The translations under genes and the position numbers were made by a program. Below, in pieces: positions 4,261 through 49,257 of a stretch of 64,000 bases of DNA (its first letter is position 1; every line of letters begins with the position of its first letter). The notes under the pieces were generated by a model. That model was not told where the DNA came from. It saw only the letters and a list, made by a program, of their open reading frames with translations, and did not search any database. The stretch comes from a virus (Duplodnaviria > Caudoviricetes), in IMG/VR virus record IMGVR_UViG_3300021431_000075, positions 609,115 through 673,114 of that record. One strand, written 5' to 3'.

Positions 4261-4338
4261 TTATTGTTCTTCTATTGATACTGTTTCAACTGAGTTTTCT
4301 TCAAAATCAGCATCCTTGATGATTAAAAGTTTTCCCAT
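4261..4338 (-). CDS. 25-aa micro-protein MGKLLIIKDADFEENSVETVSIEEQ (first ORF of left cassette; absent from ORF track)
   Basis: Manual translation; clear paralog of 6194..6268 with synonymous changes. Confidence 0.75.
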   Translation of the reverse strand: MGKLLIIKDADFEENSVETVSIEEQ

Positions 4339-4363
4339 TGATTGCACTCTTATTTTTAGAAGT

Positions 4364-4387
4364 TTGTTTCTAAACAGGTAAGTTTCG
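4364..4387 (-). repeat. Left inverted repeat (IR-L), putative recombination site
   Basis: TTGTTTCTAAACAGGTAAGTTTCG is the exact reverse complement of 6107..6130. Confidence 0.95.
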
Positions 4388-4420
4388 CTTTTTTATGATT
4401 GTAAAATTTACAGTCATAAC

Positions 4421-4454
4421 AAAAGAGAGAGCGAACATCAATCCGCTCTCTCTT
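4421..4454 (-). terminator. Intrinsic terminator of the recombinase gene, just inside IR-L
   Basis: AAGAGAGAGCG/CGCTCTCTCTT stem with T-run on minus strand. Confidence 0.8.
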
Positions 4455-4480
4455 GTATACATTAAAAATAAAATAATCAA

Positions 4481-5473
4481 TCAATCATTCCAGCATACGT
4501 ACTTTCCAAACGCGCTTTCCGATTTATGTCCAGATGCGCGTCTCACTTCTTCGTTGTGCAACCCACGTTTGATTGCATTTGTAATCATCGTTCTTCTTGC
4601 CGTATGTGAACTGATAAGCTCATAGAACTTGTATGTCACTTTCTTCAGTTCCCCGTTCTGCTTATACTCGTATACGATCTCATCATCAAAACCGGCAAGT
4701 TTGAACAGTAAGTGAAGATACTTGTTATAGTTCTCTGTGCCTCCCTTGTATGGATTCGTATAGTTATACTTCATAAGAAGTCCCTCTATTATTTTTGGAT
4801 ATGGAGCTATCCTTTTCAAATCTATGACTGCTTTGTTTCCTGTTTTCTTCTGAATAATCGTAAGAACGTTGTTATTGAACATCGTCTTGTCGATTCTTTC
4901 GATGTCAGATATTCTCTGTCCAAGCGCGCATGAAATGACAAACTGGTCCCTGACTTTCGTAAGAGTCTGCTTGAGCTGTGGTCTCACGTCAAGAGTGCTT
5001 ATGTCAAAATATGTTATTCTGGATACTTCATCTTGCGTCAAAGCAATCTTTGGTCTCTTGTCGCTACCCGGCATGTAACAGTCTTCCAGTGTTGGAGACA
5101 CTTTCGCCCCGTACTTGGCAGACCATTTCAGAACTGCCGAAATCTTGCAGCAGATGTTGTTGATTGTGCTTGTTGCAAGGTTCTTCTGAAGAAGGTAAGT
5201 ATGAAATTGCTGCCAGAACACATCTCCGATTACAATCGGGTAAAGAACGATTTCATTCTCGTTCTGGATATTCATCAAGTGCATCTTCACTTGAGAGTAT
5301 CTCCGTTCAGCTGCTTTCGTTGATGCTTTTGAGCGAATCTTCACATACTGGTCAATACATTCAAGAACCGTTGCATTCTTGAGATTGATAAAATGGTTAA
5401 ATTTGTCCGTGTCTGCAAAGATTTTAAAATTTGGACACTTCTTTTCCGGTTCTTCCGATTTTATATCTGCCAT
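4481..5473 (-). CDS. Tyrosine recombinase (phage integrase family), likely invertase
   Basis: Catalytic residues intact: GQRISD (R), QKKTG (K), SSHTARR (HxxR), SGH, FGKY (Y). N-terminal SAM-like domain; only 330 aa with no obvious arm-binding domain. Confidence 0.92.
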   Translation of the reverse strand: MADIKSEEPEKKCPNFKIFADTDKFNHFINLKNATVLECIDQYVKIRSKASTKAAERRYSQVKMHLMNIQNENEIVLYPIVIGDVFWQQFHTYLLQKNLATSTINNICCKISAVLKWSAKYGAKVSPTLEDCYMPGSDKRPKIALTQDEVSRITYFDISTLDVRPQLKQTLTKVRDQFVISCALGQRISDIERIDKTMFNNNVLTIIQKKTGNKAVIDLKRIAPYPKIIEGLLMKYNYTNPYKGGTENYNKYLHLLFKLAGFDDEIVYEYKQNGELKKVTYKFYELISSHTARRTMITNAIKRGLHNEEVRRASGHKSESAFGKYVCWND

Positions 5474-6289: not shown

Positions 6290-8248
6290 ATGGGTAATCC
6301 AATTGTAACGAAGATAACTGTTGAAGATATTCCATATAAAATAAAAGGAACTTTATATGACGAACTTGGCAACAATACTGATGGTGGTGTAACACAAGCA
6401 GCATTGACAGGCTTGTTCAATAATGTTGATTTGTCACTGTTCGATTTTAACAACAAAACAGAGAACTTCAAACTCACATCGACTGATGGTTTCTACATCA
6501 TTGATTCAACAGGAAACATTTGTTTAACAGTAAACGGAAATGGCGTTTTTGATGTATTAGACATCGGAGTGAACATCAGAAGCAAAATCGGTTCAATTAC
6601 TTCTGAAAGTATCAATACTGCAATCACAACAGTCAACGAAGCAATAGACAGCATTGATAATGACGTAAGCAAAGTAAATAGCAAGTTATCAAACTATGAG
6701 ATTACAAGCGAAGATGGCTTCAGAATAGTCGACCCTGACGGAAACATATGTTTCATTGTAAGCAGAAACGGAATGCTGGATGCTCTTGGTTTGGGAAACA
6801 ACTTGACAGAAATCATCAATAATATAATTTCATCTGGTTCTTTGTCTGTAACTACTCATGAAATTCCGCTTGATATTGAATATGGTGGCTTGACATTTGA
6901 CGGTTCTATGACAGGTTCTGATGCAAGAACTGCATTCTTCAACTTAAAGAGAACAAAGAACTTCATCAAGAGAAATACATTTGAACTCACATTGACGAAT
7001 TGTACTGCTCAAGTCTATATGTATGATAGCAGTTTTAATTTTATAAGAATCGTTGATTATGCAACATATATAGAGAATCCGAGCAACTATTCATTCTATG
7101 CATACAAACTTTTGTTCACGATTACAGATACGACAAATGAAATGAATGTCGTATATGAAGCGAATGATTGCCAGTATATCAAGAACAAATATACATCATT
7201 AACGGAAATTTCTTTCGTTTATGAAGTTCAAATAAACATTGGCAAAGATGTTCTCGATGATGACCCGACAATCGAAAGAATAATTGAGGATAAGTATTAC
7301 AATACAGGTTTTATAAAACTGCCACCAAACTATTCACAGACTGGAAGTCCAACACCTTTGATTCTTTTTGCTCATGGTAGTGGTGATTATGGAAGTATAG
7401 GTGCAAGTGTAATGACTACGAACTATGCTGCATATTATGAATATCTTCAAAAAGAAGGTTATGCTATATTTGACTGTTATGGTTCATCGAATTATTATGC
7501 ATCAAAATACAACCTTGCATATTCTGTATCTCTCGGAACACCAACAAATATGAGTTGTATCAATGCTGCATACAAATGGGTATGTGAACATTATAATGTT
7601 GATACATCAGGAATATATGTAACTGGAAAATCATTAGGCGGCATTATTTGCTTTGCTATGTTATATCAAAATTCTATTCCGGTCAGATGTGTCGGTGCTC
7701 TTGCGCCATCTATAGATGCACGTTTTCTTTCTGAATATGTTTTTGGTTATAATGATAAAACGCAGAATTTCTGTTTTGAAGATTTGGGATTTGATGTGAA
7801 TGACGGAGACACGAATGAAACGATTTTGCTGAATAATGTTGACAAGTGTGCTAATTTTATTAACTCATTGAGAAATATAACTTACGCAGAAATCGATAAT
7901 ACTCAAATAACATCTCAAAAGGAAATAGTAAGACAACTTATAAACGTTTCGCCCGGAAATGCAAAATACTCAAAACTGGAAAGAATTTGCAATGTTCCTA
8001 TTAAGATATTCATCGCAAATGATGACAAGATAGTAAGTCTTACTGGCTGCAAATATTTCATCAATTCTATCAAAGCAACAGGCGGTGATGCAGAAATACG
8101 CTTATTTCCTTCAAATACTGGAGGGCATCATGCGGTAGATACTGACACAAACGCGTTAAAAGTCAATGTTACTACAAAACTCGGCTATGATTGTTCAGAC
8201 GTGCCATTGGCATACGCAGAACTCGTGCAGTATTTTAGAAAATATTGA
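6290..8248 (+). CDS. Putative tail-spike/receptor-binding protein with C-terminal alpha/beta-hydrolase (esterase) domain
   Basis: LFAHGSG oxyanion motif, VTGKSLGG nucleophile elbow, candidate catalytic D (ANDD) and H (GGHH); duplicated N-terminal DGFxIxDxxGNIC module and short coiled coil. Confidence 0.7.
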   Translation: MGNPIVTKITVEDIPYKIKGTLYDELGNNTDGGVTQAALTGLFNNVDLSLFDFNNKTENFKLTSTDGFYIIDSTGNICLTVNGNGVFDVLDIGVNIRSKIGSITSESINTAITTVNEAIDSIDNDVSKVNSKLSNYEITSEDGFRIVDPDGNICFIVSRNGMLDALGLGNNLTEIINNIISSGSLSVTTHEIPLDIEYGGLTFDGSMTGSDARTAFFNLKRTKNFIKRNTFELTLTNCTAQVYMYDSSFNFIRIVDYATYIENPSNYSFYAYKLLFTITDTTNEMNVVYEANDCQYIKNKYTSLTEISFVYEVQINIGKDVLDDDPTIERIIEDKYYNTGFIKLPPNYSQTGSPTPLILFAHGSGDYGSIGASVMTTNYAAYYEYLQKEGYAIFDCYGSSNYYASKYNLAYSVSLGTPTNMSCINAAYKWVCEHYNVDTSGIYVTGKSLGGIICFAMLYQNSIPVRCVGALAPSIDARFLSEYVFGYNDKTQNFCFEDLGFDVNDGDTNETILLNNVDKCANFINSLRNITYAEIDNTQITSQKEIVRQLINVSPGNAKYSKLERICNVPIKIFIANDDKIVSLTGCKYFINSIKATGGDAEIRLFPSNTGGHHAVDTDTNALKVNVTTKLGYDCSDVPLAYAELVQYFRKY

Positions 8249-28116: not shown

Positions 28117-30210
28117 ATGGCTAAGAACAAGACTCCATTGCTGCGTCCATTAAGAGAACAAGGCGCGACGCTATATGTTTTTCCATCCGCAACAGAAGAC
28201 ATCGGTCTCAACATAAACAACGGAACAACCGGCGTTGCTCTGTCGCACTATGCGCTGATGAACTTCAACAGCAACAACACGAAGTTCGACTTCAGCACGT
28301 CACAAAGCCTGCTTGATCTTGCAAAGAGTCTGCAGAACTACGCGATGAACTTCGAGACAGCAGTGCTGAACCAGCCGAACTATAACTTCCAAGAGCCGTA
28401 CACCGTATCGGAGCATGTTTTCTGGCGATGGGTTGAGCATATACAGAAAACCGATTCAAAGGTTTTCAACGAAACGGAAATCGGAACGACCGGCTTGTAT
28501 AGGGAAGTGAACTACAAGTCGTCAGACACGAACAGGCTTGTCCAGTGCTTCGGTTCCATCGACGCGGGAAACTCGCTTTCAACCGACTTCGGAATGTTCA
28601 ACGAGACATATGTGAACATCCCGACAAGCTACGGCAACGGTCCTGTATTCTTTAGAAAAGTAACGAACAATCCGAACTTTGTGGCAGGTTCGTTCGTGGC
28701 GGCAAGTTCTAAAATTGAAGGAAGAAATGATGATGTCGGATATCTCGGTTCGATAAATTCAGAGTTTGATTCAAACGAAACGAACAATTACAGCATAAAA
28801 ACACCTTATGAAATCGTCAAGGACGTTCAGTCCATTCAGGCGGCTCTCCGCACACTATCCGGAGACAGCACTCTTTCCATATCTTCATATGACGATGTCA
28901 ATATCGACGCAGACGGAATCCTGAAAACAATCACAGAATCGAACGGTTCCGTATTTCCTTATGACATGTCAGAGAAGTGCGAGTTCAAGTTCAACGCGAT
29001 TCTCCTGTACTACTCGATTTATGACCTGAATGATGTTTACAAGCAGGCTATCGCCACGAACCTGTTCGGAATCGTTTTCCTGAACAACACGTCATCCGCT
29101 CCGTTCCTGACTCCGATGACAAAGAAGAAGTCGTACAACGGAAAGAGCAATGACAATGCGTATTTCGGAAACAGCTACTCGTTCAGAATCAATATCAAGA
29201 CGCTTTCCGTATATGACAACACGGATGCGAAGATTGATGACAATACGACCACGACATCTGCATACTCTGTCGATTTCAACGATGTCATATCGAACCTGAA
29301 CCGCGCAATCGACTCGATGAACACGAATGTCCAGACAACCCGTGCCATCCAAGACAACTACATGAGGATTCTCACGTACTACAACGAGGCAAAGGAGAAG
29401 ATTGAGTCTATCGAAGTCAAACTAAACAACAAGTTGTCAGATGGAATCTCTGATGCAATCGTCCAGATAAGCTCGGATATCGACGACCAGATAACAGCAA
29501 GACTTGTCGAACTCGGTCTCATCGACACAAGCAATCTGTCTTCTGACATGACAGAGACCATCAACGAGGGAAGCAGCCGGGGAGTACAGACTTATGGAAC
29601 GGCTCCGACATCTTATGCAGCGCCGAAGTCACTGAATATGCAAGGCAATTCCCTTGAAGGAGAACTCACCGGTTCCAGAGTCAATATCATATCCGCATCC
29701 GACACGAATGTCAAGGCTAACAACACTGTCAACATAACGGGAAAGAACATCGTTTTCAACGTCCAGTTGTCAAATGGAGAGTATGTAAGCATTCCGCTTG
29801 TCAATATTCTTGAAAAACTCAATATGCTAAAGAACTCCATCGATGACTTTGCAGAAAACATAGAGTTTGTCGATGATGACACTATAACATATGAGTCTGC
29901 AGCAAACATCGTGGATGATATGCAGGAAGCGCAGGAAAATCCGAAAACAGAAGAAAGAACAGCGGCAATCAAGTCTCTGTTCGACACGGTTGCAGTTCCG
30001 ATTGCCGGATTGCTTGTTCCATATGCAAAGAAGCCGACAGAAGCCGGCTTATATCTCAAGAAGAACACTGCCGGCAACATAGCGAACATCACACACTTCG
30101 ACGGAAACGACTATACACTGACAGACAAGTGCATCAGCGGAAAGATGTACATCATGGACGGTCTTGTCTATGTGTTCAACGGCGAAACTTGCAAGCCGCT
30201 TGGTGAATAA
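28117..30210 (+). CDS. Putative baseplate/tail structural protein
   Basis: 697 aa with central coiled coil; structural context. Confidence 0.6.
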   Translation: MAKNKTPLLRPLREQGATLYVFPSATEDIGLNINNGTTGVALSHYALMNFNSNNTKFDFSTSQSLLDLAKSLQNYAMNFETAVLNQPNYNFQEPYTVSEHVFWRWVEHIQKTDSKVFNETEIGTTGLYREVNYKSSDTNRLVQCFGSIDAGNSLSTDFGMFNETYVNIPTSYGNGPVFFRKVTNNPNFVAGSFVAASSKIEGRNDDVGYLGSINSEFDSNETNNYSIKTPYEIVKDVQSIQAALRTLSGDSTLSISSYDDVNIDADGILKTITESNGSVFPYDMSEKCEFKFNAILLYYSIYDLNDVYKQAIATNLFGIVFLNNTSSAPFLTPMTKKKSYNGKSNDNAYFGNSYSFRINIKTLSVYDNTDAKIDDNTTTTSAYSVDFNDVISNLNRAIDSMNTNVQTTRAIQDNYMRILTYYNEAKEKIESIEVKLNNKLSDGISDAIVQISSDIDDQITARLVELGLIDTSNLSSDMTETINEGSSRGVQTYGTAPTSYAAPKSLNMQGNSLEGELTGSRVNIISASDTNVKANNTVNITGKNIVFNVQLSNGEYVSIPLVNILEKLNMLKNSIDDFAENIEFVDDDTITYESAANIVDDMQEAQENPKTEERTAAIKSLFDTVAVPIAGLLVPYAKKPTEAGLYLKKNTAGNIANITHFDGNDYTLTDKCISGKMYIMDGLVYVFNGETCKPLGE

Positions 30211-30253
30211 CCGTCTCATAATCAATAAATACAAAAAATTATTCGATCGAATA

Positions 30254-33200
30254 ATGTCCAATATCAACAGTTTTTCCCAAAACATATCACAGACAGTTAC
30301 GAACAGCGCGAACACGCTGTCAATGCTCACCGCTATCCAGAAAAGCCTGAGCACGAACGACACCGTAACGACCTTCGACTATGATGACGGAAAAGGAAAT
30401 ACTATCCAGTACCAGTTGCCGAGCTACGACGCGGTCGTGAACAGGCTCAAGGCTGTCGAGGAGTCTCTCAACAACCTTGTTGCCGGAAAGGGGACAGTGA
30501 ACCTGAACGACGGTTCCAGACGCTCGATTACGCTTTCTACTATTCCGACAACTCCAGCACAGATAACAGGACTTGCAGATCCTTCGACATTCACGATAGA
30601 CAGCAACTGGTTCTTTGAAGAACTGATGTTTCCGGGAGCGCAGGTCGAGATTGACCTGACCGGACAGATAGATGACACTTCTGACAGAGTCAAGGTCGTG
30701 AGAGTCATTCTCAACGCGCAGGATGACGATGCCACGACTTTCTGGAACACGACTCTTGCAAGCAACAGCTATTCATATCCTGACTTAAGACAAGAACTCA
30801 CGAACAACGGAATCGCTTATTCGATTGACGAAGAGGTCGTTCAGATGCCGCTTGTCAGCAACCAAGTGAACGGAACGTTCCAGATTACAGATGACCCGAT
30901 TGTCATCAACGGCAACGTCTGGTATCCGATTGACACAATATCGTACTCGACGATAGACAATGACGGTGTCAATGTCGGTCAGAACAACATCCTGTCAATC
31001 GGAGACAGGCTCAGCTACTCTGACTCTATATTCGAGATAGTCGAGATAGACCAGAACAACAACAGAATTAGAATCAAGAAAGTGAGCGGCGCAGAGATGC
31101 CCGGAACCTTCTCGATGCTGCATTTCTACCAAGACCCGTTCAGAAACAAGACTCTCAAGGTCAGATTCGGCGCGCATGAATATGACATCATCTACTTCAA
31201 GGGAATCAGCGAGAACTACAACCTGCTTGCAGACGAATGGTCAACACCTGTCAAGTTCGCATCAGACGACCTTGTCCTTTCCGGCACTTCCGGACTCCAG
31301 CAGACGAACTTCTCGTCATATTACCAGCAGTATGTGGTGGACTGGGGCAGGGAGATGATAGCGGAAGCAAAGGAGCGCAGGGTTTCTGCATACTACGGAA
31401 ACATTCCGAACACTCCGACACTCAATGCCGACGATTTCCGCGTCGTTCAAATCAACACGCAAATCAATGCGGCAATCGACACGACTGATGTAAAGAACAC
31501 AGCTGCTGAAATAGAAAGCGTCAAGTCCCAGATAGCATCTCTTAAAAGCACGATTGCCGCTCAAAAGACAGACCTGCAGTCTGCCGTGAACCTATACACA
31601 TACAACTCGATTCAAGAGCAAATTTCAACCAACACGACAGACCTGAACAATCTTCAGACCACATACACCACGCTTGTTAACAGCTTCCAGACAATCGTAA
31701 GGGAAAATGCTGCAATCACAGCGGTTCCGAAATACCACATCAGAGGCTTCTTCCCTATTCCGGACTACAAGTTCAGGGACGAGGAAGAAACAAGTCCGGA
31801 AATCATCATCGGTTTCGACATAGCATACCGATACATCAAGGAAGACGACACTGCGACACAACTCAACACGTTCACATATACGAACACGGACGGCTCGGAA
31901 ACCACGGGAACATTCACAGACTGGATTCTTACGCAGAGTTCGTTGAAAACGATGAAGTATGATAACGATTTGCAAAGATATGTCTGGGTTGACGAGAACG
32001 TGGCAGACGGAACCGAGACGAACATCAACCAGATAGACATCGCAATCAACAAGGGAGAGAAGGTGCAAATCAAGGTCCGCTCCATTTCAGAAGCCGGTTA
32101 TCCAAGAAACCCTCTCCGCTCGGACTGGTCGAATGTCGTGACCGTTGACTTTCCAAGCACGCTTGCAACAAGCAACGAGATTGCAGACTTGATTAAGGAA
32201 GTCAACGACGATGCATTGACAATCACAATCAACAACAATCTTGATTCCGCCGGCGTCACAGAGCACTTGGATGACACGATTCCGAACAGCAATTCTGTAA
32301 ACGGTCTCTACTTCAAGCATCAGGCAAAGAACATCGCTTATGAGGAGAGCATGACAACAGACGGAACAACTGTCGTGAACTCAATCAGTCTGCAGGACAA
32401 GATTTCGCAACTGTTCACGAAAATATCCGACAACTCGTTCAATGTTTCCACAAACGAGACTGCAATCAACGACATCCGTTCAGAGATGCATGAGAAGCAT
32501 TCGCAGTACGAGGAAAGCATATCAAGCATCAACGCTCTTGACGAAGTCCAGAATGCGAGCATCAATCTCAACACTTCCAAGATAGACTCAATCAGAACAG
32601 ACAGAGGTTATGTCAAGACAGAGAGAGTCATCATGACAAACGACGAAGGAACCGGAAAGGTTTCTGTCACCCCGATGGGAATGAACGAACTGTTTGTCAT
32701 CGACTCTTCGACAACAGACACGACATCACTCGTGCCAATCCATGCGAAAGATGTTTTCATACACAAGAGCGGCTCGCTTGTCGATTCGATTTCAGTAACA
32801 TCAGAGATAGAAAGACTCAATGAAAACACATCTTCGAACCTTGACAAGATTAACGACATCAATGCAAGCATCAGTCGTGTGAACGACAGGCTTACAGACA
32901 TAAACAACCTGCACACGCTGGACGTGAGCCTTTTGCGTGCCGAGCATGTCGAACTGCAGGAAGAAGTCGCGTCATTCCATGAGAAGTCAACGAACGAGGC
33001 TCTGTTCAACACGATGTATCTCGGTTACAAGTTCTCAGCGACCGCAACGCAGACTCCTAAGACGAAGCTCTCGACAAACGACGCGACCGGTATGCTCTAT
33101 GTATATGACGGTCAGTCTGAAGAGCAGCTCGGAATCGTCAATGCGGAAGACTTCAAGATATACACGAACGGTTATCTCTCAGGAAACGTTGTCTCGATGA

Positions 33201-34321
33201 GCGAGGTTGCAGAAGTCGTAACAGACCATGACAATGACATCAACACGATTCAAGACAACATCGGAAGCATCAACGACACCCTTTCAAAGATTTCATACAA
33301 GGTCAGCGACCAAGACATGCAGGTCCGCGGAAACTCCATGAACATAACCGGGAAGGGAACTATATCCACAGTCAGCTGCACGGATTTCGAAGTCACGAAC
33401 GGAAACGCTTTGTGGGTTGCGAACGGAACCAATACGGCACAGCTTGTAGATGGTCACTTCAAGAACATATACCTGCATGAAGCCGGTCAGAAAAGTTCTT
33501 CAGCATTGAACATGCTTGGTGAAATCAAGAATGCATCTACTGTAATAACAGAGCATGAAGATATTCTTAACGGAGTTGGCGGATTGACGGAAATTCACCA
33601 ATATGTTGATAATGAGCACATTCTCAAAAACATAACAGAAATTATATCCGAAACGACAAGAACAAACGGATTGTCTGTTGAAGAAGATAATGTTCCGATG
33701 AGCGGTGCCACATTCAAGGCATATGGTTCCAATGTCATCCTCACGTCCAACTTGAACGGAAATTCAGACGAATATGCTCCGCTTGTCGTTCAAGATGTCG
33801 TTTTGAAAGCAAACGCGAATGCAAGCGAGACAAGACTTCAGGACTATATAACGAACACATTGACTCCTGCGCTTGAAGTCACGAACATGTCAAAGGAAAT
33901 GTTCAATGCGTCTGCCGGAAACGCATCAACGAACCTGAACCTGCACGGTGTGACTGTCAACAGCAACTTCAATATCGTACAGCCGACGAATCCGAACTCC
34001 GGATACCAGATTTCAAGAATGTCATACTTTCCAAACGCGAACGGCGGCAACGGCGTATATTTCAGCGACATATCACCGACCGGCGAGGAAAGACCCGGTT
34101 CCATCAAGTGCGGAAGTCTGTATGCGAACCAGATATTCTATGAAAGTGGAAATGAAACGCAAAGTCTCGACAGTTTCATTAGAGACATAGTTCCATTAGA
34201 CACACAGACAAGAATCAATGAGATAGTAAACATATTAAGAAGCATGGTAACAGATGCATCTCTTTCTGCACACATAAGTCCAACTTTAAAGCAAAGACTC
34301 AATCAATTGGGAAATTTATAA
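30254..34321 (+). CDS. Large putative tail/baseplate protein with coiled-coil and fibre-like C-terminus
   Basis: Likely start MSNINSF at 30254 after AATAAATA (30224). Confidence 0.65.
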   Translation: MSNINSFSQNISQTVTNSANTLSMLTAIQKSLSTNDTVTTFDYDDGKGNTIQYQLPSYDAVVNRLKAVEESLNNLVAGKGTVNLNDGSRRSITLSTIPTTPAQITGLADPSTFTIDSNWFFEELMFPGAQVEIDLTGQIDDTSDRVKVVRVILNAQDDDATTFWNTTLASNSYSYPDLRQELTNNGIAYSIDEEVVQMPLVSNQVNGTFQITDDPIVINGNVWYPIDTISYSTIDNDGVNVGQNNILSIGDRLSYSDSIFEIVEIDQNNNRIRIKKVSGAEMPGTFSMLHFYQDPFRNKTLKVRFGAHEYDIIYFKGISENYNLLADEWSTPVKFASDDLVLSGTSGLQQTNFSSYYQQYVVDWGREMIAEAKERRVSAYYGNIPNTPTLNADDFRVVQINTQINAAIDTTDVKNTAAEIESVKSQIASLKSTIAAQKTDLQSAVNLYTYNSIQEQISTNTTDLNNLQTTYTTLVNSFQTIVRENAAITAVPKYHIRGFFPIPDYKFRDEEETSPEIIIGFDIAYRYIKEDDTATQLNTFTYTNTDGSETTGTFTDWILTQSSLKTMKYDNDLQRYVWVDENVADGTETNINQIDIAINKGEKVQIKVRSISEAGYPRNPLRSDWSNVVTVDFPSTLATSNEIADLIKEVNDDALTITINNNLDSAGVTEHLDDTIPNSNSVNGLYFKHQAKNIAYEESMTTDGTTVVNSISLQDKISQLFTKISDNSFNVSTNETAINDIRSEMHEKHSQYEESISSINALDEVQNASINLNTSKIDSIRTDRGYVKTERVIMTNDEGTGKVSVTPMGMNELFVIDSSTTDTTSLVPIHAKDVFIHKSGSLVDSISVTSEIERLNENTSSNLDKINDINASISRVNDRLTDINNLHTLDVSLLRAEHVELQEEVASFHEKSTNEALFNTMYLGYKFSATATQTPKTKLSTNDATGMLYVYDGQSEEQLGIVNAEDFKIYTNGYLSGNVVSMSEVAEVVTDHDNDINTIQDNIGSINDTLSKISYKVSDQDMQVRGNSMNITGKGTISTVSCTDFEVTNGNALWVANGTNTAQLVDGHFKNIYLHEAGQKSSSALNMLGEIKNASTVITEHEDILNGVGGLTEIHQYVDNEHILKNITEIISETTRTNGLSVEEDNVPMSGATFKAYGSNVILTSNLNGNSDEYAPLVVQDVVLKANANASETRLQDYITNTLTPALEVTNMSKEMFNASAGNASTNLNLHGVTVNSNFNIVQPTNPNSGYQISRMSYFPNANGGNGVYFSDISPTGEERPGSIKCGSLYANQIFYESGNETQSLDSFIRDIVPLDTQTRINEIVNILRSMVTDASLSAHISPTLKQRLNQLGNL

Positions 34322-34339
34322 TTTGATAAAAATTAAAAG

Positions 34340-34370
34340 AAAAAGAGATGCACGATTTGCACCTCTTTTT
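34340..34370. terminator. Intrinsic terminator
   Basis: AAAAAGAGATGCA/TGCACCTCTTTTT. Confidence 0.7.
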
Positions 34371-34431
34371 CTTTCTTTACAAGTTCAAAAAGCAACATAT
34401 TCTTTCTTTACAAGTTCAAAAAGCAACATAT
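34370..34431. repeat. Perfect 31-bp tandem duplication
   Basis: TCTTTCTTTACAAGTTCAAAAAGCAACATAT x2. Confidence 0.95.
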
Positions 34432-34680
34432 CTGCTTTTCAAAATAAATAGTTCCGTAGAACATAGAAATTCATAGAATCCCGTATGTTTACTTTCTTTT
34501 GACGATTCATCGGTGACTTGGTACTCACAAGACCGTTCATTAAATGAACGCGTTTTCCTATAGGTCATCTCCACGTCCCGTCTCCCCGAACTCAGGGGCA
34601 GCCCGGACTGTCGGACTCCGGGAAATCCAGAGACAGCTTAATGTCTCTACGAGTTTATAAAGAACAATGACAGAGAATCT
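34415..34680 (-). ncRNA. Structured ncRNA resembling a TnpB (IS605/IS607) omega-RNA, orphan
   Basis: No ORF; dedicated promoter (34687-34716) and terminator (34418-34439); CCCC-TGAGTTC-GGGG hairpin, GACG-TGGAG-ATGAC...GTCAC-CGATGAAT-CGTC-AAAAGAA core, loop AGTTC complementary to terminal GAACT. Confidence 0.65.
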
Positions 34681-34686
34681 ACATAA

Positions 34687-34716
34687 GTATACTACAAGAT
34701 GACAAAATAGTTTAAA
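34687..34716 (-). promoter_or_regulatory. Phage promoter class TTTAAAC-N17-GTATAC driving the ncRNA
   Basis: TTTAAACTATTTTGTCATCTTGTAGTATAC. Confidence 0.75.
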
Positions 34717-34845
34717 AAACTTCAATGTTTTTTTGATAGCATATTAAATGAAATTAGTTAATAAATACTATACAAAAATAATAAATTCTTGTGGTTTTGC
34801 ATCATATGTACAAAGCCATTTAAAGAACCACATCATTACATTGCA

Positions 34846-37800
34846 ATGAGCGAGATTAAATGCATATTGACACTTGAGAAAAGAACGCTTGTCGTTGACT
34901 TCACATCACTATTCGGAAAAGACGCGCAGTTCGGAAACACACTGTCGATAACCGTAGATTCAACTACTAATGAAATGTTCAACCAGTATGTCAACGGAAG
35001 CGAGGACGGAACTGTCAAGTCGCATCTGTTCATCAACGGAGTCAGGTTCAGCGACCTTAACGGTTCGGACAACACGAGAACCATTGATTATCCATCAGAC
35101 ACACAAAGGCACATTGCAACAGTAAGCATAGAACCGGATTCCATATATTTCGCAGAAGGAGACTTGACGCTCTCGTTCGGAAGCGAATACACGGTCAAGG
35201 TCAACATATCGGACAATGACACGCAGACGATAGAAAGCCGCTCGTTCACAGCAAACCAGCTTGACATGACTCTCGAGACATACATGCTTGTCAGAACGAA
35301 CCCGAAACTTTCCGGAAACATCAAGCTCGTCGTCGATAGCAAGTACAGGCTTTACCTTGACACGATAAAGGACAGCGGCTCGTCCATGCTGAACGACCGC
35401 GTGTACAGAAAGTATCCGATTTCGTCAGAAGGAAACTATCCGTTCGACGTGATGACCGTGTTCTCAAGCCTTCCGAAAAGCGAACTGTTCAAGCTTCCGA
35501 AAGACTCGCTGAATCCTCACAAGAACTTCAACGACTACAAGAACCAGTTCTTCACGAACTACGAATACGGCGCAGAGACGAACACGGACAACCTGTATCC
35601 GGAAAACATGAAGATTCTTGCCCCGATCCATATCGGAAAGACGATTCCGGACTTCTTCACCATATTCAGATATGACGGAACGTTCAATGAAGAGACATAC
35701 GGTTCTGTCGATATAAACGATACAGAAAAACTGATTTCATTGCTCAAGGAATCGGAAGTCGTGAAGATTTTCGACCTCAGGACATATACGCCAATCGGTC
35801 AGTACCTGAACAACTACAAGAAATACATCAAGGATTTCCTATACGGTTCCTGTCACTTGCAGTTTATCGAGCAAGACAATGAGAAGTACGGTCAGAACTA
35901 CAGACAGGGCAACAACTCTTGGAGAGGCATCGCAATCGACAAGGGAATCATCACGAACAAGATAGAGACTTCGTATTTCGGAAACAACATACTAACTTCC
36001 GAACTCGGAGTTCAGGAAAGGTTTGACGAGTACATCATCAACGGCTATGAGAGAAACAACATCCTGTACCCGTACATCATCAACCTTGAGTTCATGTTCA
36101 ATGACGAGAAAACCGAAGAGTACTCAATGCACAGGTACTTCGGTCTGTACCTCAGCTCGAACAGTTTCCTCAACTACGACTGCATCGTGACTGACAACCA
36201 CAAGGGAAACAACGTGGTCCACAAGTATGACAAGAACGACAATGAAATCTATGACGCGGGAATCATCGACTCGATTTTCAACAAGAAGTTCGCAGACCGC
36301 ATCTTCTTCATGACAACAAACAACGACGCGACAAGAATACAAAGCAACGATGATGTCAAGAAGTTCATCAGCAACTATGTCATCGACAACCCGGACAAGA
36401 ACATCTGCAACGTGCGTGCCGACAAGGTTGACTGGGAAGACGAGGACAAGTCGTTCATAACCCTGAACTTCACAGAGCCGATTGAATACGGCGAACACCT
36501 GAGAATCGTCGCTCTTGACTATTACAATGAAATCGAGAAGAAATTCCAGAACATCTGCCTTGAAATCATCGCTTCCAATGACGCGAGACTGATTTCAACA
36601 GACTACAACATATCTCCGTACATATACACGAACGAGCCGCTCATCAACAAAGTGCAGGAGAACCAGACAGAAAACAACATATACAGACTGTCTTTCTATA
36701 CGCAGGACTTGGCAGATGCATCAAAGCCAGCTTCTCTACAAGAACAGTTATCGAGAATAAGGCACTGCATCGACAAGTTCGACATGTTTGCAAAGGTGGA
36801 ATCAATGAACGAGAACACCATCGGAATCTCATCAATGCATGACAAGACTTTCTTCCAGCACATCGCAAAGATGAACAAGTATCCGGAGCCGGCATACGAG
36901 AAGTTCTACATCAAGGATGACAAGCTATACTACACCGGCGAACAGAGCATAGAGAACAATCAGTCATCATACATCATAGACATCAGGGACGCGCTCGGAT
37001 GCGAATGCGAGCATATCGGTCAGGACAATAGTGAAATTCATAGCGGAAACACAGTCAATAATGTTTTCTACTCAAAGGACAATGACATCGAAAACAGCAA
37101 GATAGCAACATATGTAGAGTACAAGTCCAATGAAGTGAAAGATACCATCAGATACTTCTCCAAGACATTCGACAGCCTTATGCATCCTCTGTCTCCGGAC
37201 TCTTACTACTACTATAGCAAGTTTGCAACATTCTCCACATTCAGTTTCGATGTTCTTGGATGGAGATACTCGAACATTGTGGAATTCAAGAAGATAAGCG
37301 ACTTCAAGCATCCTTATGTCATATATGATGACATCGAAAGCATATTGAAAGTCGTAAGGCATCCTCTGACAAAATGCATCACCGGTCAGTTCGAGACGAT
37401 GAACAAGATTGGCATCAACACCGGATACTTGACAGACAATCCGCTTGTTCTTATCGGCAACGACACGATGACCCAGAAACTCAAGTTCACAGAATCCGAG
37501 TATAATCTTATCGTGTGTCCGTACAACGTGGACAAGACAGTCATAGATTTCGCCATAGAGCCGCTTCTTGTGAACTACATGCTCGGTCTCTACAATCCGG
37601 AATCTGCAGACCTGTGCATCATGGGCATATTCAATGTCAAGGATATGGACCTGACAATCGACATGAACCAGTCTGTGAACATCACAAGTTCGGACCAGAT
37701 GTTCATCAAAGCTGGCGATACCGTATATACGAACAACCGTAACGATGACAGGATTCTCCACAACATCGTATATAAGATTGACAGCGGTTCTTTCAACGAG

Positions 37801-40053
37801 TTCAGCGCGTCAAAGTTCATCATCATCGGCGACAAGCTATATACAAGCGGAACAGACGAATCGACATCGGTTGTCAGGGTGATAGACCTGTTCAAGGGTT
37901 CTCTCACAGCAGCGACAGACATAAGACTTGAAGTGTGCGACTCCAACTGCAAGCAGACGTTCGACTTCATTAAGAACATCCCGCAGCACAAGTCGAGGAA
38001 CTTCTACATCAACTCTGACGAGTCAAGGCAACTGAACATATCAATCGTTCCGCAGTCGAACTGCATATGGGAATCGAACGGTCAGTACTTCGACGGAAAC
38101 AACTCGCTCAATGTCGATGACATGGTATCAAACGTTCCATACAAGATGAACGGATACTTCATCGAGCATGGTTTCTCGCAGAGCGGTTCCGTGAACCAGA
38201 ACATGTTCATCAAGAACTCTCTGGACACGTTCATGAAAATCGGAACAGAATATCACAACTTCAGAAAGATAATCAACAACAACTTGATTAAGAATCCTTT
38301 GAAGAACCTGCTCATACAGAACACGAACATCAGTCCGGCAATCGGTTACTACAACTCGTTCGTCCAGTCGCTTGAGTTCATATTCTACGGAATCAAGTTC
38401 AACATCAAGTTCAACAGCGAGTACTACAACCAGAACCTGCGCATCGGCGAATACAATAACTTCGAGGTGTTTGTCATCAATGACTATGACATCAACAAGA
38501 ACAATGAAATCGTCATATCGGCAGACGAGGAAATCATCATCATCGTCAACCACAAGTTCAACCTGTACGGAGACGATGCAAGATACTCTCAAGTCAAGAT
38601 GATTTCGGAAACCAACATTTCCGCAACCGCTCCGTACTCTGCTACACAGGCTCCGTACTCTCTCAAGACAGAGAGCGTGTTCACGATGCCGGGTCTTGAC
38701 AACACAAGAAAGAACTTCTTGGCTGCAAAGTCCGGAACCGGAACAGTCAACAAGTCGCAGAACACCGCTTATGTTCAAATAGACAAGGTCTCTACCGAAT
38801 ATGTCAACAACATGAGCGTAAAGCCGAGCTACTTGTACTTCGAGACACCGGATTATGAAGATGACAACTCGATTGCTATCAACAGAGGCACTACATATAT
38901 GTTAGACTCGTCAGTCGTTTCAGCGGGCAATGAAGAATCATATGGCATCAAGAAGTTCCCTGTGGACTATGAAGATATCGACTTGCTGTCCCAAAAGCAC
39001 AGGAAAACAGAATCTTTCATCATCAACAACAAGGAAACATCCGACTATACAGCGGTTGACGCTTCCAAAATGATAGGAAAATTCATCGCTTCGTTCGACG
39101 ACAACTACGACTGCTATGTAATCTCGAACGGAAAATGCGAGAACATCCACATAACCAAGACGTACAAGCCTATTACGGTCAGCCTGAGCATTCCGAACCA
39201 AATTAAGTACAACTTCGGCTACTTCACTCCGAGAACATACGACATCATCAATTTCAAGACAAACGACCATGAAGTTGCCGGAGCGATAAACATGTCCATG
39301 CTTCTCGGAAACACGAAAGTTGATTCTGTCAACAAAATCAAGTGCTATACCGGAAACAAGGTGTTTGACACGAAGATAGAGACAAGCATCGACAAGAACT
39401 ACTTCATCAATGCATACAAGTCTCCGTTCGCGTCGAATTGGGACAAAGACTACTACCGCAAGTACAACATAGAAAGCCAAGACAGTTATACAGGTCTCAA
39501 CGGTTACCTTCCGGGAATCGAGGACAAGTCGTTCTTCGGCTCGAAGTGCATGACGCTGAAAACCAACTTCATAAAGATAAGCGACTTCACAGACAGAAAA
39601 GCGAACAAGGGCGACATAGTCCGTGTTGACAGCCAGCACAACATACTTTCGGAAAACGAGAACCAGTACCGTTTCATAATAAATATAACACAGGCTCTAT
39701 ACACTCTGTTCCAGAGCAATACGACATTCACTTCCAACTGGATTGGATTCACAAGCGGCGTAGATACGTCAATCAAGAACTATATAAAGAGCACGATTTC
39801 AGAAATTTTCAACAATCAGAGAAAGTGCGATGTCGTCATCGAATGCATCAATGACAATGAAAACGAGCAGATGAGAATCTCATACAGCCCGTTCGACACA
39901 GATAACGAGAATGTATTCACAGTGGATAACTTCCACACGGAGGCATCCATCGAAAACGAAGACTATCTGATAACTGTCACAATCAGAGAGATGAAACACA
40001 CGGTAATCCATCCATATGTGAAGATATACAGATATGTTCAACCGACGAAATGA
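34846..40053 (+). CDS. Very large putative virion (baseplate) protein
   Basis: ~1735 aa from MSEIK; late motif AATAAATA at 34760. Confidence 0.65.
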   Translation: MSEIKCILTLEKRTLVVDFTSLFGKDAQFGNTLSITVDSTTNEMFNQYVNGSEDGTVKSHLFINGVRFSDLNGSDNTRTIDYPSDTQRHIATVSIEPDSIYFAEGDLTLSFGSEYTVKVNISDNDTQTIESRSFTANQLDMTLETYMLVRTNPKLSGNIKLVVDSKYRLYLDTIKDSGSSMLNDRVYRKYPISSEGNYPFDVMTVFSSLPKSELFKLPKDSLNPHKNFNDYKNQFFTNYEYGAETNTDNLYPENMKILAPIHIGKTIPDFFTIFRYDGTFNEETYGSVDINDTEKLISLLKESEVVKIFDLRTYTPIGQYLNNYKKYIKDFLYGSCHLQFIEQDNEKYGQNYRQGNNSWRGIAIDKGIITNKIETSYFGNNILTSELGVQERFDEYIINGYERNNILYPYIINLEFMFNDEKTEEYSMHRYFGLYLSSNSFLNYDCIVTDNHKGNNVVHKYDKNDNEIYDAGIIDSIFNKKFADRIFFMTTNNDATRIQSNDDVKKFISNYVIDNPDKNICNVRADKVDWEDEDKSFITLNFTEPIEYGEHLRIVALDYYNEIEKKFQNICLEIIASNDARLISTDYNISPYIYTNEPLINKVQENQTENNIYRLSFYTQDLADASKPASLQEQLSRIRHCIDKFDMFAKVESMNENTIGISSMHDKTFFQHIAKMNKYPEPAYEKFYIKDDKLYYTGEQSIENNQSSYIIDIRDALGCECEHIGQDNSEIHSGNTVNNVFYSKDNDIENSKIATYVEYKSNEVKDTIRYFSKTFDSLMHPLSPDSYYYYSKFATFSTFSFDVLGWRYSNIVEFKKISDFKHPYVIYDDIESILKVVRHPLTKCITGQFETMNKIGINTGYLTDNPLVLIGNDTMTQKLKFTESEYNLIVCPYNVDKTVIDFAIEPLLVNYMLGLYNPESADLCIMGIFNVKDMDLTIDMNQSVNITSSDQMFIKAGDTVYTNNRNDDRILHNIVYKIDSGSFNEFSASKFIIIGDKLYTSGTDESTSVVRVIDLFKGSLTAATDIRLEVCDSNCKQTFDFIKNIPQHKSRNFYINSDESRQLNISIVPQSNCIWESNGQYFDGNNSLNVDDMVSNVPYKMNGYFIEHGFSQSGSVNQNMFIKNSLDTFMKIGTEYHNFRKIINNNLIKNPLKNLLIQNTNISPAIGYYNSFVQSLEFIFYGIKFNIKFNSEYYNQNLRIGEYNNFEVFVINDYDINKNNEIVISADEEIIIIVNHKFNLYGDDARYSQVKMISETNISATAPYSATQAPYSLKTESVFTMPGLDNTRKNFLAAKSGTGTVNKSQNTAYVQIDKVSTEYVNNMSVKPSYLYFETPDYEDDNSIAINRGTTYMLDSSVVSAGNEESYGIKKFPVDYEDIDLLSQKHRKTESFIINNKETSDYTAVDASKMIGKFIASFDDNYDCYVISNGKCENIHITKTYKPITVSLSIPNQIKYNFGYFTPRTYDIINFKTNDHEVAGAINMSMLLGNTKVDSVNKIKCYTGNKVFDTKIETSIDKNYFINAYKSPFASNWDKDYYRKYNIESQDSYTGLNGYLPGIEDKSFFGSKCMTLKTNFIKISDFTDRKANKGDIVRVDSQHNILSENENQYRFIINITQALYTLFQSNTTFTSNWIGFTSGVDTSIKNYIKSTISEIFNNQRKCDVVIECINDNENEQMRISYSPFDTDNENVFTVDNFHTEASIENEDYLITVTIREMKHTVIHPYVKIYRYVQPTK

Positions 40054-46219: not shown

Positions 46220-46837
46220 ATGCCCAGATACTGCAAACTGTCAGACTATGCAAAGAAATACGGAGTCACATACAGGACCGCTTTCAACAGGTTCAATGCA
46301 GGAAAGATAGAAGGAGCAATAAGAGACAAAACTGGACACATTTGCGTTCCCATCGACTACATCCAGAATGCATCATCAACGAATGTGGTCATATATGCCA
46401 CTGCTCTTTCAAACAAGGAAGAACACATCAGGAAACTGAACGAGCAGATAAGCACCATCAAGAAATACTGCAATGCAAAGGGATATCATGTCACCAAGAT
46501 TGTAACAGAGTTCGCATCTTCCATCACAGCAAGCCATCCAAAACTTATCGAACTGATGAAAGACAACTCTTGCAAGCATATCGTCATCGACAATCCGGCA
46601 ACAGTCTCCCGTTTCAGTTTCGACATCATCAGAGAACTGTTCGAATCATGCGGAAAGGAAATCGAGGCGATGAACACCGAAGACTATGACAAAAACGCAC
46701 TTCGCGAAGACTTTGTCAAGGTCATCTACAATGTCTGCAAGACTCTCAACAACCAGAAGATTCCGAAGAAGAACATAATGAAACTAATCGACAATCTATC
46801 ATTAAGCACAGAAGAAAGCAAATTGAGCGCATCATAA
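46220..46837 (+). CDS. IS607-family TnpA-like protein (HTH + serine recombinase fold), catalytically degenerate
   Basis: KLSDYAKKYGVTYRTAFNRFNAGKI HTH; canonical YARVS is YATAL and DRLxRF is ATVSRF; no tnpB downstream. Confidence 0.8.
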   Translation: MPRYCKLSDYAKKYGVTYRTAFNRFNAGKIEGAIRDKTGHICVPIDYIQNASSTNVVIYATALSNKEEHIRKLNEQISTIKKYCNAKGYHVTKIVTEFASSITASHPKLIELMKDNSCKHIVIDNPATVSRFSFDIIRELFESCGKEIEAMNTEDYDKNALREDFVKVIYNVCKTLNNQKIPKKNIMKLIDNLSLSTEESKLSAS

Positions 46838-46844
46838 TAAAGAA

Positions 46845-47384
46845 ATGAACATAAGCATTATCGTGGCGATAGCGAATAACTATGCTATCGGAAAGAACAA
46901 TGAACTAATATATCATCTCTCGAACGATATGAAAAAGTTCAAGTTCCTGACACAAGGAAACACTGTCATAATGGGCAGGAAAACATTCGAATCGCTTCCG
47001 AAAGGCGCGCTGCCGTACAGAAGGAACATCGTTCTCACAAAGCATCCAGAAACACTTGCAGACGTGCCGAACATCGACATATTCACATCTCTTGAAGAAG
47101 CATTAAAAGACTGCAAGGATAGGTTCGACAAGAAACTAAACTATTCGGATGAAGTTTTCATCATCGGCGGAAGTTCCGTCTATGACGAAGCGATCAGCAT
47201 AGCAGACAAGATGTTCATCACAAAAGTGCATGACACTCCGGAAGATGCGGACACTTTCTTTCCCGAATTCGACTTGAACGACTGGCACCAAACATCAATC
47301 GAGAAGTTCGATGCAGATGACAAGAACAAGTTTCCTTACGACTTCATAGAACTTGAACGAAACGAGAAAAAGCCGATTTTTTGA
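46845..47384 (+). CDS. folA: Dihydrofolate reductase
   Basis: IIVA..IGKNN, MGRKTFESLP, LPYRRNIVLT, IIGG and DTFFP. Confidence 0.97.
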   Translation: MNISIIVAIANNYAIGKNNELIYHLSNDMKKFKFLTQGNTVIMGRKTFESLPKGALPYRRNIVLTKHPETLADVPNIDIFTSLEEALKDCKDRFDKKLNYSDEVFIIGGSSVYDEAISIADKMFITKVHDTPEDADTFFPEFDLNDWHQTSIEKFDADDKNKFPYDFIELERNEKKPIF

Positions 47385-47418: not shown

Positions 47419-49257
47419 ATGGCAAAGAAATACATACTAAGGTCATTCAAGCCCGGCACGAAGAGTCACAACAAGGTTAACAACACCCTTGTGAACCTGA
47501 GCACGCTCGGACTCAACAAGCAGCAGAGTATTCTGAAGAACTCGATTTCAATGGGTGCTTCTGAAACGACACGATACAACAGCTACTCCACAAACACACT
47601 GATGCCATATGAGGAAGACTTCGAGAACGAGGCATTCCAGAAGTACAAAGACATCACGAAGAACGGAACAAGTTCATATGCATACTATGACCTGAGTTAT
47701 CCTCAAAGAGTCGAGTACCTTAGATACTTTTCACAGCATCAGACAATATCGTTTGTTCTTGACACGATAGCGGACGAGACAATCGTATTCGACAAGAATA
47801 ACTATTTCGCATATCTTGACACAGACAAGCTCAAGTCGAACCTGAGCGCAGGAAACGAAATCGGCGAGAAGCTGATAGAGACATGCGACCGTGCTTTCCA
47901 TGACGTTTATCTCGCTTTCGGTTGGGACAAGTCAAACGGCGCATGGGATATCTTCAAGAAGTTCCTCATAGACGGATACCTCTCGTTTGAAATCATATAC
48001 AACGACCCGGACAACCCGACAAAAATCATCGGTTTCAAGTATATCGACCCTGTTACTCTCGAACCGTCCATACAGATAGATTCCCAAGGCAGAGAAATAA
48101 AAGTTTGGTACCAGAGCAGGGGAGACAGTAACGAGAGAATCATTCCGGACACGCATCTTATCTACATCAACTGGTCAGACGGCATCGCGGGAGAGCAGAA
48201 CAGAATATCTTATCTTGAAGGATTGACAAGGTCGTTCAACATGCTTTCTCAGATTGAGAACTCCCGACTGATATGGAACATCCAGAACGCGCAGAAGAGA
48301 ATGAAGATTATCGTTCCGGTCGGAGACATGCCGCCATACAAGGCAGACGCGCTGATGAACCAGTTGAAGGCAGACTGGAACGAAGAAACGCATATAGACC
48401 TGTCAAGCGGTGAAATGGTCGTGAACGGTCTACCGCAGTTCTCGTTCACAAAGACATACTTCTTCCCGCAGAGAAATAGCGGTTCTGTTACAATAGAAGA
48501 ACTTGCTCCGGAAGGATATGACCTGAACTCTATAGAGCCTGTAAAGTATTTCTGGAGAAGATTCATCCTTGATACGAAACTTCCGGCAAACAGATTCCTT
48601 ATCGACCCTACAGGAGACGGCGGTCATCAGATAATAGCGGATGACTCTGCAATCACAAGGGAAGAATGGGCTTTCAGCAGATTCATCAACAGAATACGAA
48701 GCATTTACAGAGAGATATTGCTGAAGCCTCTCTGGATTCAAATATGCCTGTATATTCCGAAACTGTCAAAGTCGGAATATTTGAGACAGGCTCTCGGCAT
48801 CGTGTTCAATGAAGAGAATGCGTTTGTTCAAGCAAAGGAAAGACTTTCATTGCAAGCCGGCGTGAATGTAATCAACAGCCTGTATGGACTGCAAGACTCT
48901 CAAGGGAAACCGTATTTCTCAATCAAGTTCCTGATTCAGAAGTTCCTTGACCTGTCAGATGACGACTTCCTTCTCAATGAGAAGTACAAACAGGAAGAAA
49001 TTCTTGATATTCTCAATAAAGCAAAAGCTGCAAAAGATCATGCCGCGATAAATGCTGCAACTGGCGGAGGAGCGCCGGGCGGAATGCCGGGAGCCGGAGA
49101 TGACTTCGGTGGAGACTTCGGCGGCGGTGGCGGAGACTTCGGTGGCGGATTTGACGGAGGCGGAGACTTCGGCGGCGGTGGCGGAGACTTCGGTGGAGCA
49201 GGAGATGATTTCGGAGCGCCACCAGCACCACCGGCAGGCGGCGGAGATGACTTCTAA
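47419..49257 (+). CDS. Portal protein (T4 gp20-like) with Gly/Asp/Phe-rich tail
   Basis: LDTIADETIV, FLIDG, ISYLEGL..FNML..IENS..IW, YFFPQR, KYF, LPANRF and ITREE..FSRFINRIR. Confidence 0.9.
   Translation: MAKKYILRSFKPGTKSHNKVNNTLVNLSTLGLNKQQSILKNSISMGASETTRYNSYSTNTLMPYEEDFENEAFQKYKDITKNGTSSYAYYDLSYPQRVEYLRYFSQHQTISFVLDTIADETIVFDKNNYFAYLDTDKLKSNLSAGNEIGEKLIETCDRAFHDVYLAFGWDKSNGAWDIFKKFLIDGYLSFEIIYNDPDNPTKIIGFKYIDPVTLEPSIQIDSQGREIKVWYQSRGDSNERIIPDTHLIYINWSDGIAGEQNRISYLEGLTRSFNMLSQIENSRLIWNIQNAQKRMKIIVPVGDMPPYKADALMNQLKADWNEETHIDLSSGEMVVNGLPQFSFTKTYFFPQRNSGSVTIEELAPEGYDLNSIEPVKYFWRRFILDTKLPANRFLIDPTGDGGHQIIADDSAITREEWAFSRFINRIRSIYREILLKPLWIQICLYIPKLSKSEYLRQALGIVFNEENAFVQAKERLSLQAGVNVINSLYGLQDSQGKPYFSIKFLIQKFLDLSDDDFLLNEKYKQEEILDILNKAKAAKDHAAINAATGGGAPGGMPGAGDDFGGDFGGGGGDFGGGFDGGGDFGGGGGDFGGAGDDFGAPPAPPAGGGDDF

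Follow-up and report, generated by a model that had tools for sequence, protein, structure and literature searches.

The locus raises the question of what a GC-rich block without long open reading frames (ORFs) represents between two large plus-strand ORFs (30164-34321 and 34789-40053) of a rumen megaphage genome. The phage record comprises 673,114 bp with direct terminal repeats, has a GC content of 40.7% and encodes a T4-like portal protein; the window, by which we mean the whole 64,000-nt stretch of DNA that was analysed, corresponds to its bases 609,115-673,114, and positions are those of the window unless given in kb or assigned to the phage genome. The GC content of the block reaches 0.51-0.57 at 34500-34650, compared with 0.18-0.29 in the flanks and 0.407 genome-wide, and the only ORFs overlapping it are short (42-55 aa). 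An earlier reading of the letters alone (the sequence-only reading) had described just such a GC-rich, ORF-free block and had proposed that it encodes a TnpB-type omega-RNA. All the motifs that it named were recovered on the minus strand, namely the hairpin with the loop TGAGTTC, the TGGAG...CGATGAA arrangement, AAAAGAA, two TTCTATG repeats and AGTTC/GAACT (GAACT at 34450-34454). ARAGORN detected neither tRNA nor tmRNA in the block, BLASTN against 50,697 phage records gave no match, and folding of the single sequence was uninformative by itself (z-scores of -1.05 for the minus and -1.98 for the plus strand).

We conclude, with a probability of roughly 0.8, that the minus-strand segment 34448-34769 derives from an IS607 element, encodes no protein and is not autonomous; it carries a TnpB omega-RNA scaffold and would be served in trans by TnpA and TnpB. 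The scaffold of this mini-element has the following parts:

34448-34607, minus strand: omega-RNA scaffold core, at the same time the IS607 right end; identified by a covariance model (180.9 bits) and by homology to tnpB-attached copies
34584-34598, minus strand: hairpin H1 within the scaffold
34588-34592 with 34450-34454, minus strand: pseudoknot between the H1 loop (AGUUC) and GAACU
remainder of the scaffold, minus strand: a long-range stem capped by a variable hairpin, then a linker rich in A and, on the 3' side, a stem-loop with the TTCTATG repeats

The core (34448-34603) occurs at four places in the phage genome with 92-96% identity, a repetition well beyond chance: in the window and at 585.75 kb, 117.4 kb and 201.0 kb. 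At 117 kb and 201 kb it begins a few bases past the stop codon of a 565-aa ORF, and the window scaffold and the stretch behind the tnpB stop of the full IS607 copy at 117.4 kb are 94.4% identical. TnpB homologues from rumen metagenomes (35-90% identity) were taken with their flanks, and altogether both genomic IS607 copies and eight metagenomic tnpB loci have a core of 142-160 nt that immediately follows the tnpB stop or overlaps it. Given these copies behind the tnpB stop, the block corresponds by homology to the non-coding right end of IS607 elements. TnpB guide RNAs are known to be encoded at the non-coding right end (Karvelis et al., PMC8612924; Meers et al., PMC10055086), and the right end of IS607 elements has been described as an omega-RNA locus (bioRxiv 10.1101/2023.11.20.567912). 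The omega-RNA identity proposed earlier is thus borne out, and tnpB-attached copies, by which it was to be checked, are provided by the two full IS607 elements of this phage. The suggested origin from IS605 or IS607 can be narrowed to IS607, whose transposase is a serine recombinase.

A covariance model built here (158 positions, 44 pairs) retrieved exactly the four copies from the phage genome with 180-186 bits, the window copy matching model positions 1-158. A match of 19 bits at 9267-9406 of the window was rejected, as it is just a terminator-like hairpin inside a gene region. In a covariation alignment of 13 sequences fitted to the model, nine of which are close relatives, 94% of the cells were standard pairs. 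Double changes were seen in 13 pairs, compared with 6.0 ± 1.4 after shuffling (0/500) and 0-5 with slid partners. The pseudoknot, which the sequence-only reading had placed correctly with its end at 34450, is paired in all 13 sequences (5/5 pairs kept) with two compensatory pairs; in L018 it becomes GGAUC/GAUCC, a variant also found in L065 and L052. The TTCTATG-bearing 3' stem-loop re-forms with other sequences in distant members, and the only stem difference between the window copy and the resident full copies is a compensatory change from U-A to C-G. In Rfam 15, no family reached its gathering threshold anywhere in the window, and none matched meaningfully over 34448-34607 in a search of 34200-34900 with E up to 10; the weak chance matches all fell on a terminator hairpin at 34335-34375. 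The scaffold therefore matches no other Rfam family, which would have spoken against an omega-RNA, and a cmsearch with TnpB models was possible only with the model built here, since no curated family matches. This blank is a gap in the library and not counter-evidence to the fold.

The sequence-only reading had noted that no tnpB lies in the window and that the RNA would have to act in trans. Elsewhere in the phage genome, candidate partners were found:

117-120 kb and 198-201 kb: full IS607 copies with tnpA and tnpB, from protein family matches
117.6-119.3 kb and 199.3-201.0 kb: ORFs for a TnpB of 565 aa, each preceded by an ORF of 196 aa

The 196-aa protein is the IS607 transposase (NF033518, 6e-53; Pfam Resolvase) and the 565-aa protein is TnpB (NF040570, 2e-53; HTH_OrfB_IS605, OrfB_IS605 and Cas12f1-like_TNB), which could be aligned to the ISDra2 TnpB structures 8EXA/8H1J with an E-value of 8e-34. 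Its RuvC residues D/E/D are kept in the motifs GLDLG, EDLN and RDE, and it is unusually long, with about 522 aa from the likely start. Judged by these residues, a catalytically competent cognate TnpB is encoded in the phage genome: both tnpB genes are intact, their products are not dead nucleases of the TldR type, and the scaffolds attached to them are 94% identical to the window copy. The genome contains six TnpB-like genes in total (84.5, 117.7, 133.0, 174.0, 200.3 and 308.7 kb) and six IS607 TnpA-like genes (76.6, 86.0, 119.4, 198.6, 308.0 and 655.4 kb). The scaffold type studied here accompanies only the two 565-aa TnpBs, so that the other TnpB-like genes must use different guide RNAs.

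The remainder of the mini-element and the adjoining junction motif lie upstream of the scaffold on the minus strand:

34608-34679, minus strand: 5' region of the predicted RNA, in which AGAGACA..UGUCUCU and CCCGGA..UCCGGG form two hairpins
34680-34769, minus strand: diverged IS607 left end, from alignment with full IS607 left ends
34710-34715 and 34686-34691, minus strand: promoter-like site, TTAAAC and TATACT separated by 18 nt, with a predicted start near 34679
34770-34773, minus strand: GTAT junction motif, predicted target-adjacent motif (TAM) and TnpA target core, from junction comparison

The window copy and the 585.8-kb copy share about 326 nt, well beyond the core. The left end can be aligned over about 85-95 nt with the left ends of five full IS607 copies; over its first 95 nt it is 62.5% identical to the full copy at 117 kb, and it is about 90% identical to the left ends of other mini-elements. 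It begins with GTATWGTAWTY, followed by ATTTAATA, ATCAAAAA and TTTTAAACTATT. As the left end is just about 62% identical to those of the full copies, its recognition by the resident TnpA is uncertain, and one of the four further IS607-type recombinases in the genome could be the real partner of the mini-element.

The stretch 34608-34679 stands where full elements have the last tnpB codons. It is kept in 11/11 mini-element copies, with changes confined to loops or compatible with G-U pairing, and a hairpin of the form AGAG/GAGG..CUCU is found at the matching place in full copies and in distant relatives. Within this part, AGAGACATTAAGCTG had been read as a possible relic of the RDINA codons of tnpB. 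We rejected this candidate: AGAGACATTAAGCTG forms a conserved 7-bp hairpin without sequence match to the RuvC-III codons, and the real codons (NRDEGASDNI) lie about 100 nt further upstream in the full copies and are absent from the window copy.

A promoter had been proposed as TAAAC-N17-GTATAC, and its position was right, but the site is better described as TTAAAC-N18-TATACT and is the promoter-like site of the element's left end, i.e. of the tnpA side. It is nearly invariant across the mini-element copies, and the full IS607 elements have a homologous site, TTAAAC-N18-TAACAT, ahead of tnpA in their left end. A simple sigma-70 scan chose a different, weaker hexamer pair and the site is only consensus-like, which counts against our main reading. 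A few further intergenic sites of the phage, before genes, likewise show the TTAAAC-N18-TAnnAT pattern. As a separate observation, TTAAACTATTTTG with a TAnnAT box 18 nt after TTAAAC is found in the phage genome at 204,281 (minus), 369,284 (plus), 336,315 (plus) and 366,276 (plus), after terminators and before genes; judged from sequence, it is a candidate phage promoter class in common with the IS607 left ends.

Downstream of the scaffold, three further features were noted:

34428-34447, minus strand: predicted guide UUAUUUUGAAAAGCAGAUAU, the 16-20 nt of flanking DNA directly 3' of the scaffold
34415-34440, minus strand: weak terminator-like hairpin AAAAGCA..UGCUUUU with a U run, from sequence and fold, in flanking DNA
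34335-34375, both directions: strong two-way terminator hairpin of the upstream 1385-aa gene, 18 pairs in a terminator scan

The terminator postulated for the RNA corresponds to the hairpin at 34415-34440, but it is weak and A/U-rich, a consensus terminator scan made no call there, and this flank lies outside the repeated unit. The strong hairpin at 34335-34375 would be the next possible stop for a minus-strand RNA.

Homology among the copies ends exactly after ...GAACTAT, and the sequence beyond differs in every copy. The right ends of the close copies, including at least seven metagenomic tnpB loci, read ...TACRGAACTAT before diverging, and those of the distant members read ...GATCCAT (L018, the most distant of the tnpB loci taken for comparison) and ...GATCCGT (L065 and L052). 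At the left, the junction was GTAT in 14/14 independent cases of the close family, all right ends of which are CTAT; two independent insertions of a distant relative have GCGT on the left and CCGT on the right. The last three junction bases thus co-vary between left and right, whereas position -4 is G at the left and C at the right. In CboIStron, the one IS607 element characterised in depth, TGGG is both TnpA target and TnpB TAM and the end of the scaffold is TCGG, this single differing position providing discrimination between self and non-self (bioRxiv 10.1101/2023.11.20.567912). By analogy with TGGG and TCGG, the TAM of the 565-aa TnpB is predicted to be GTAT. The crossover point is uncertain by 1-4 nt, and the first base of the guide is likewise.

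To follow the mini-element beyond this genome, we scanned JGI metagenomes with an invariant 19-mer and then with the covariance model and obtained 19 matches. Nine of these loci, which represent eight separate sites, are of the window type in their 5' part and left end and have unrelated flanks, and eight are tnpB-attached. The insertions thus comprise the two genomic copies and at least eight further metagenomic sites, starting with GTAT+WRTAWTY and ending in GAACTAT; full mini-elements measure 325-328 nt and are 89-96% identical. The same 19-mer gave 24 matches in 185,579 species genomes (bacterial and archaeal), none of which fits the covariance model; we regard them as chance GC-rich matches, and no copy from a bacterial host was found. 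Neither an exact 21-mer taken from the core nor a scan for back-translated TnpB gave any match in IMG/VR, with the proviso that records near the phage genome may be masked. The flanks of the metagenomic contigs match the phage genome with 70-98% identity, and the contigs were therefore assigned to related phages. Some of these insertions are missing from the phage genome itself, which is without the element where L027 and L036 carry a mini-element and L017 a full IS607 (72-90% identity at these places, the junctions not being base-exact). At the empty site corresponding to the L027 insertion, GTAT is present and 11 nt (ATGTATAATAA) are common with the L027 left junction, 9 nt of them from GTAT onward.

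Several of the contigs showed additional arrangements. L036, a 7.7-kb rumen phage contig, has a complete mini-element at 4320-4649 and a second right end with scaffold at 7636-7744, 3 kb away in the opposite orientation and cut by the contig end. L011:2122-4941 is a copy of the IS607 studied here at a position corresponding to about 86,919 of the phage genome, where the latter has a different IS607 (tnpA at 86.0 kb and TnpB-like gene at 84.5 kb); compared with 84.3-87.0 kb of the phage genome, an 86-bp stretch of the flank is found on both sides of the insertion, and the site may be an insertion hot spot or a case of element replacement. In L012:2922-4847, tnpB and scaffold are present without tnpA, homology to the full element starting at the very end of tnpA; the family thus has tnpA+tnpB, tnpB-only and protein-free forms.

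These insertions also bear on what else the block could be. An internally deleted, dead IS607, neither a working guide nor mobile, would have a left end as diverged from the resident full copies as the one seen here (62.5% identity), and an empty allele of the window copy's own site was found in none of the collections, searches for relatives of its flanking genes also being blank, which likewise counts against homing at this locus. However, the 325-nt unit, including promoter hexamers and 5' hairpins, is kept at 89-96% over at least 10 independent insertions, the scaffold scores 181 bits compared with 180-188 bits in tnpB-attached copies, its lone stem difference is compensatory, and full-length sites do not outnumber mini-type sites (8 versus 10 in the close family), so we consider an inert remnant improbable. 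It is extremely improbable that the block acts as a small protein or as a cis-acting DNA or RNA signal (terminator, insulator or leader) of the neighbouring plus-strand genes. Its position between two large plus-strand genes would suit such a signal, but the flanking genes are different at every insertion site. A stop-free frame of 53-66 codons does recur in 5/6 full mini-elements, yet its start is not conserved, and in the 585.8-kb copy a deletion of 2 nt disrupts it; furthermore, the same sequence is the non-coding 3' trailer in full IS copies, and the substitutions track base-pairing and not codon position.

The sequence-only reading had left two options, a non-autonomous element or a guide-RNA gene domesticated by the phage. 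According to the latter, a stand-alone gene would steer TnpB to a constant target, for example a competing phage, a host gene or one of the phage's own promoters, resembling the TldR systems or a one-spacer CRISPR. The promoter-like site and intact scaffold agree with this idea, as does a seed match: GTAT and the first 12 nt of the window guide occur at 469,062-469,077 of the phage genome (L110:1563-1578), in an intergenic position upstream of a plus-strand gene, where 0.0025 such matches are expected under a third-order Markov model. Yet just 12 of the 16-20 guide nucleotides are matched, the sequence is probably an A/T-rich motif that recurs between genes, and the window guide has no full-length target in the phage genome or in IMG/VR. 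For the guide of the 585.8-kb copy, IMG/VR yielded a single exact match of 20 nt, but on an unrelated contig without GTAT and without the element, probably by chance. Moreover, the unit is present at no fewer than 10 unrelated sites, each with another guide, as expected for a mobile element, the guide is whatever DNA flanks the right end, and the TnpB retains its RuvC residues, unlike a dead nuclease of the TldR type. We therefore rate a domesticated gene as quite unlikely, and the IS607 left end together with the many sites with different flanks favours the non-autonomous element.

For the mini-element as an IS607 derivative served in trans, we infer the following course of transcription, TnpB loading, TAM recognition, cleavage and mobilisation. 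The promoter of the left end, directed from the outside inward, would produce a minus-strand RNA of about 250 nt that passes through the scaffold into the flank, and since this RNA runs into flanking DNA, its last 16-20 nt (34428-34447) would form the guide. Different flanks at each insertion would mean a different guide at each. The 565-aa TnpB from the two full IS607 copies would bind this RNA in trans, and the complex would cut guide-matching DNA next to GTAT. The target would be the locus without the element, either after excision or in a co-infecting related phage; at this locus, the element-free allele or donor joint should have ...GTAT joined directly to TTATTTTGAAAAGC. Repair from the occupied copy would then restore or spread the element (homing), and IS607 TnpA, supplied in trans, would carry the mini-element to new GTAT sites. 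For each of the four genomic guides, the phage genome contains no full match besides the guide itself, which fits the homing model with the element-free allele as the target.

The arrangement resembles several known systems. As in the IS607 omega-RNAs or reRNAs (CboIStron, bioRxiv 10.1101/2023.11.20.567912; RAGATH-18-derived, PMC11061315), the homologues are located at the tnpB 3' end of elements with tnpA (serine recombinase) and tnpB, the scaffold ends at the right end and the guide is flanking DNA; as in CboIStron, left junction and scaffold end differ at one base (TGGG/TCGG there and GTAT/CTAT here). In contrast to the IS607 reRNAs, the element described here is without Rfam match, RAGATH-18 included, the cognate TnpB is unusually long and the window copy has no tnpB in cis; in contrast to CboIStron, there is no group I intron and the core is of the TAT type instead of GG. 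In the IS200/IS605 group, protein-free PATEs frequently code for omega-RNAs that depend on a TnpB supplied from elsewhere (Meers et al., PMC10055086), and the mini-element shares with them both ends, the lack of genes, multiple copies, the predicted dependence of its omega-RNA on another element's TnpB and a transposase in trans. However, the parents of PATEs use a Y1 transposase and single-stranded hairpin ends, whereas the parent here is IS607, with a serine recombinase and a double-stranded circle, and the mini-element resides in megaphage genomes and has a recognisable promoter-like site in its left end. With TldR and other domesticated TnpB systems (bioRxiv 10.1101/2023.11.30.569447) it has in common a guide RNA apart from the transposase context and a possible distant target; unlike in these systems, the TnpB has the RuvC triad, the guides differ between copies and no promoter target was found. 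With the free-standing homing endonuclease genes of T4-like phages (reviewed in PMC13565253), the mini-element likely shares its biological outcome, in that the element-free allele of a co-infecting relative is cut and the element is copied by recombination, but recognition here would be RNA-guided and set by the insertion site, and the element lacks a nuclease gene. The presence of tnpB genes in phages was already known (e.g., PMC12607003); in the literature, we found no report of an IS607 counterpart to PATEs, or of such elements in phage or megaphage genomes. The mini-element thus extends known biology without establishing a new principle.

The mini-element family would be a natural case of a trans-acting, separately promoted omega-RNA. 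It offers a compact scaffold of about 160 nt with a covariation-supported fold including a pseudoknot, an unusually large TnpB and a predicted GTAT TAM, and its distribution across related, uncultured megaphages of the rumen would allow RNA-guided homing between genomes in co-infection to be addressed by read mapping. That mini-element sites are at least as many as full-length ones bears on the persistence of the TnpB system. More speculatively, the mini-element could act in rumen megaphages as a guide-only hyperparasite of the TnpB system, the insertions of which write promoter-driven guides and build an arsenal for marker exclusion or homing in co-infection; we regard this as doubtful. If true, each insertion would generate a guide against the uninserted allele of competing phages, and a CRISPR-like targeting repertoire would arise through transposition and not through spacer acquisition.

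Two further observations concern the window itself. Between the mini-element and the terminator of the upstream gene, adjoining the predicted guide, there is a perfect 31-bp tandem duplication at 34369-34431 (TTCTTTCTTTACAAGTTCAAAAAGCAACATA twice), the first unit of which provides half of the weak terminator-like hairpin. At 46220-46837 on the plus strand, the window encodes a diverged 205-aa homologue of IS607-type serine recombinases (NF033518, 85.7 bits; Pfam Resolvase, 20.4 bits; both below the cut-off). This gene has no adjacent tnpB, is located just upstream of a DHFR gene (46845-47384) and the T4-like portal gene (47419-49257), and may be solo or domesticated.
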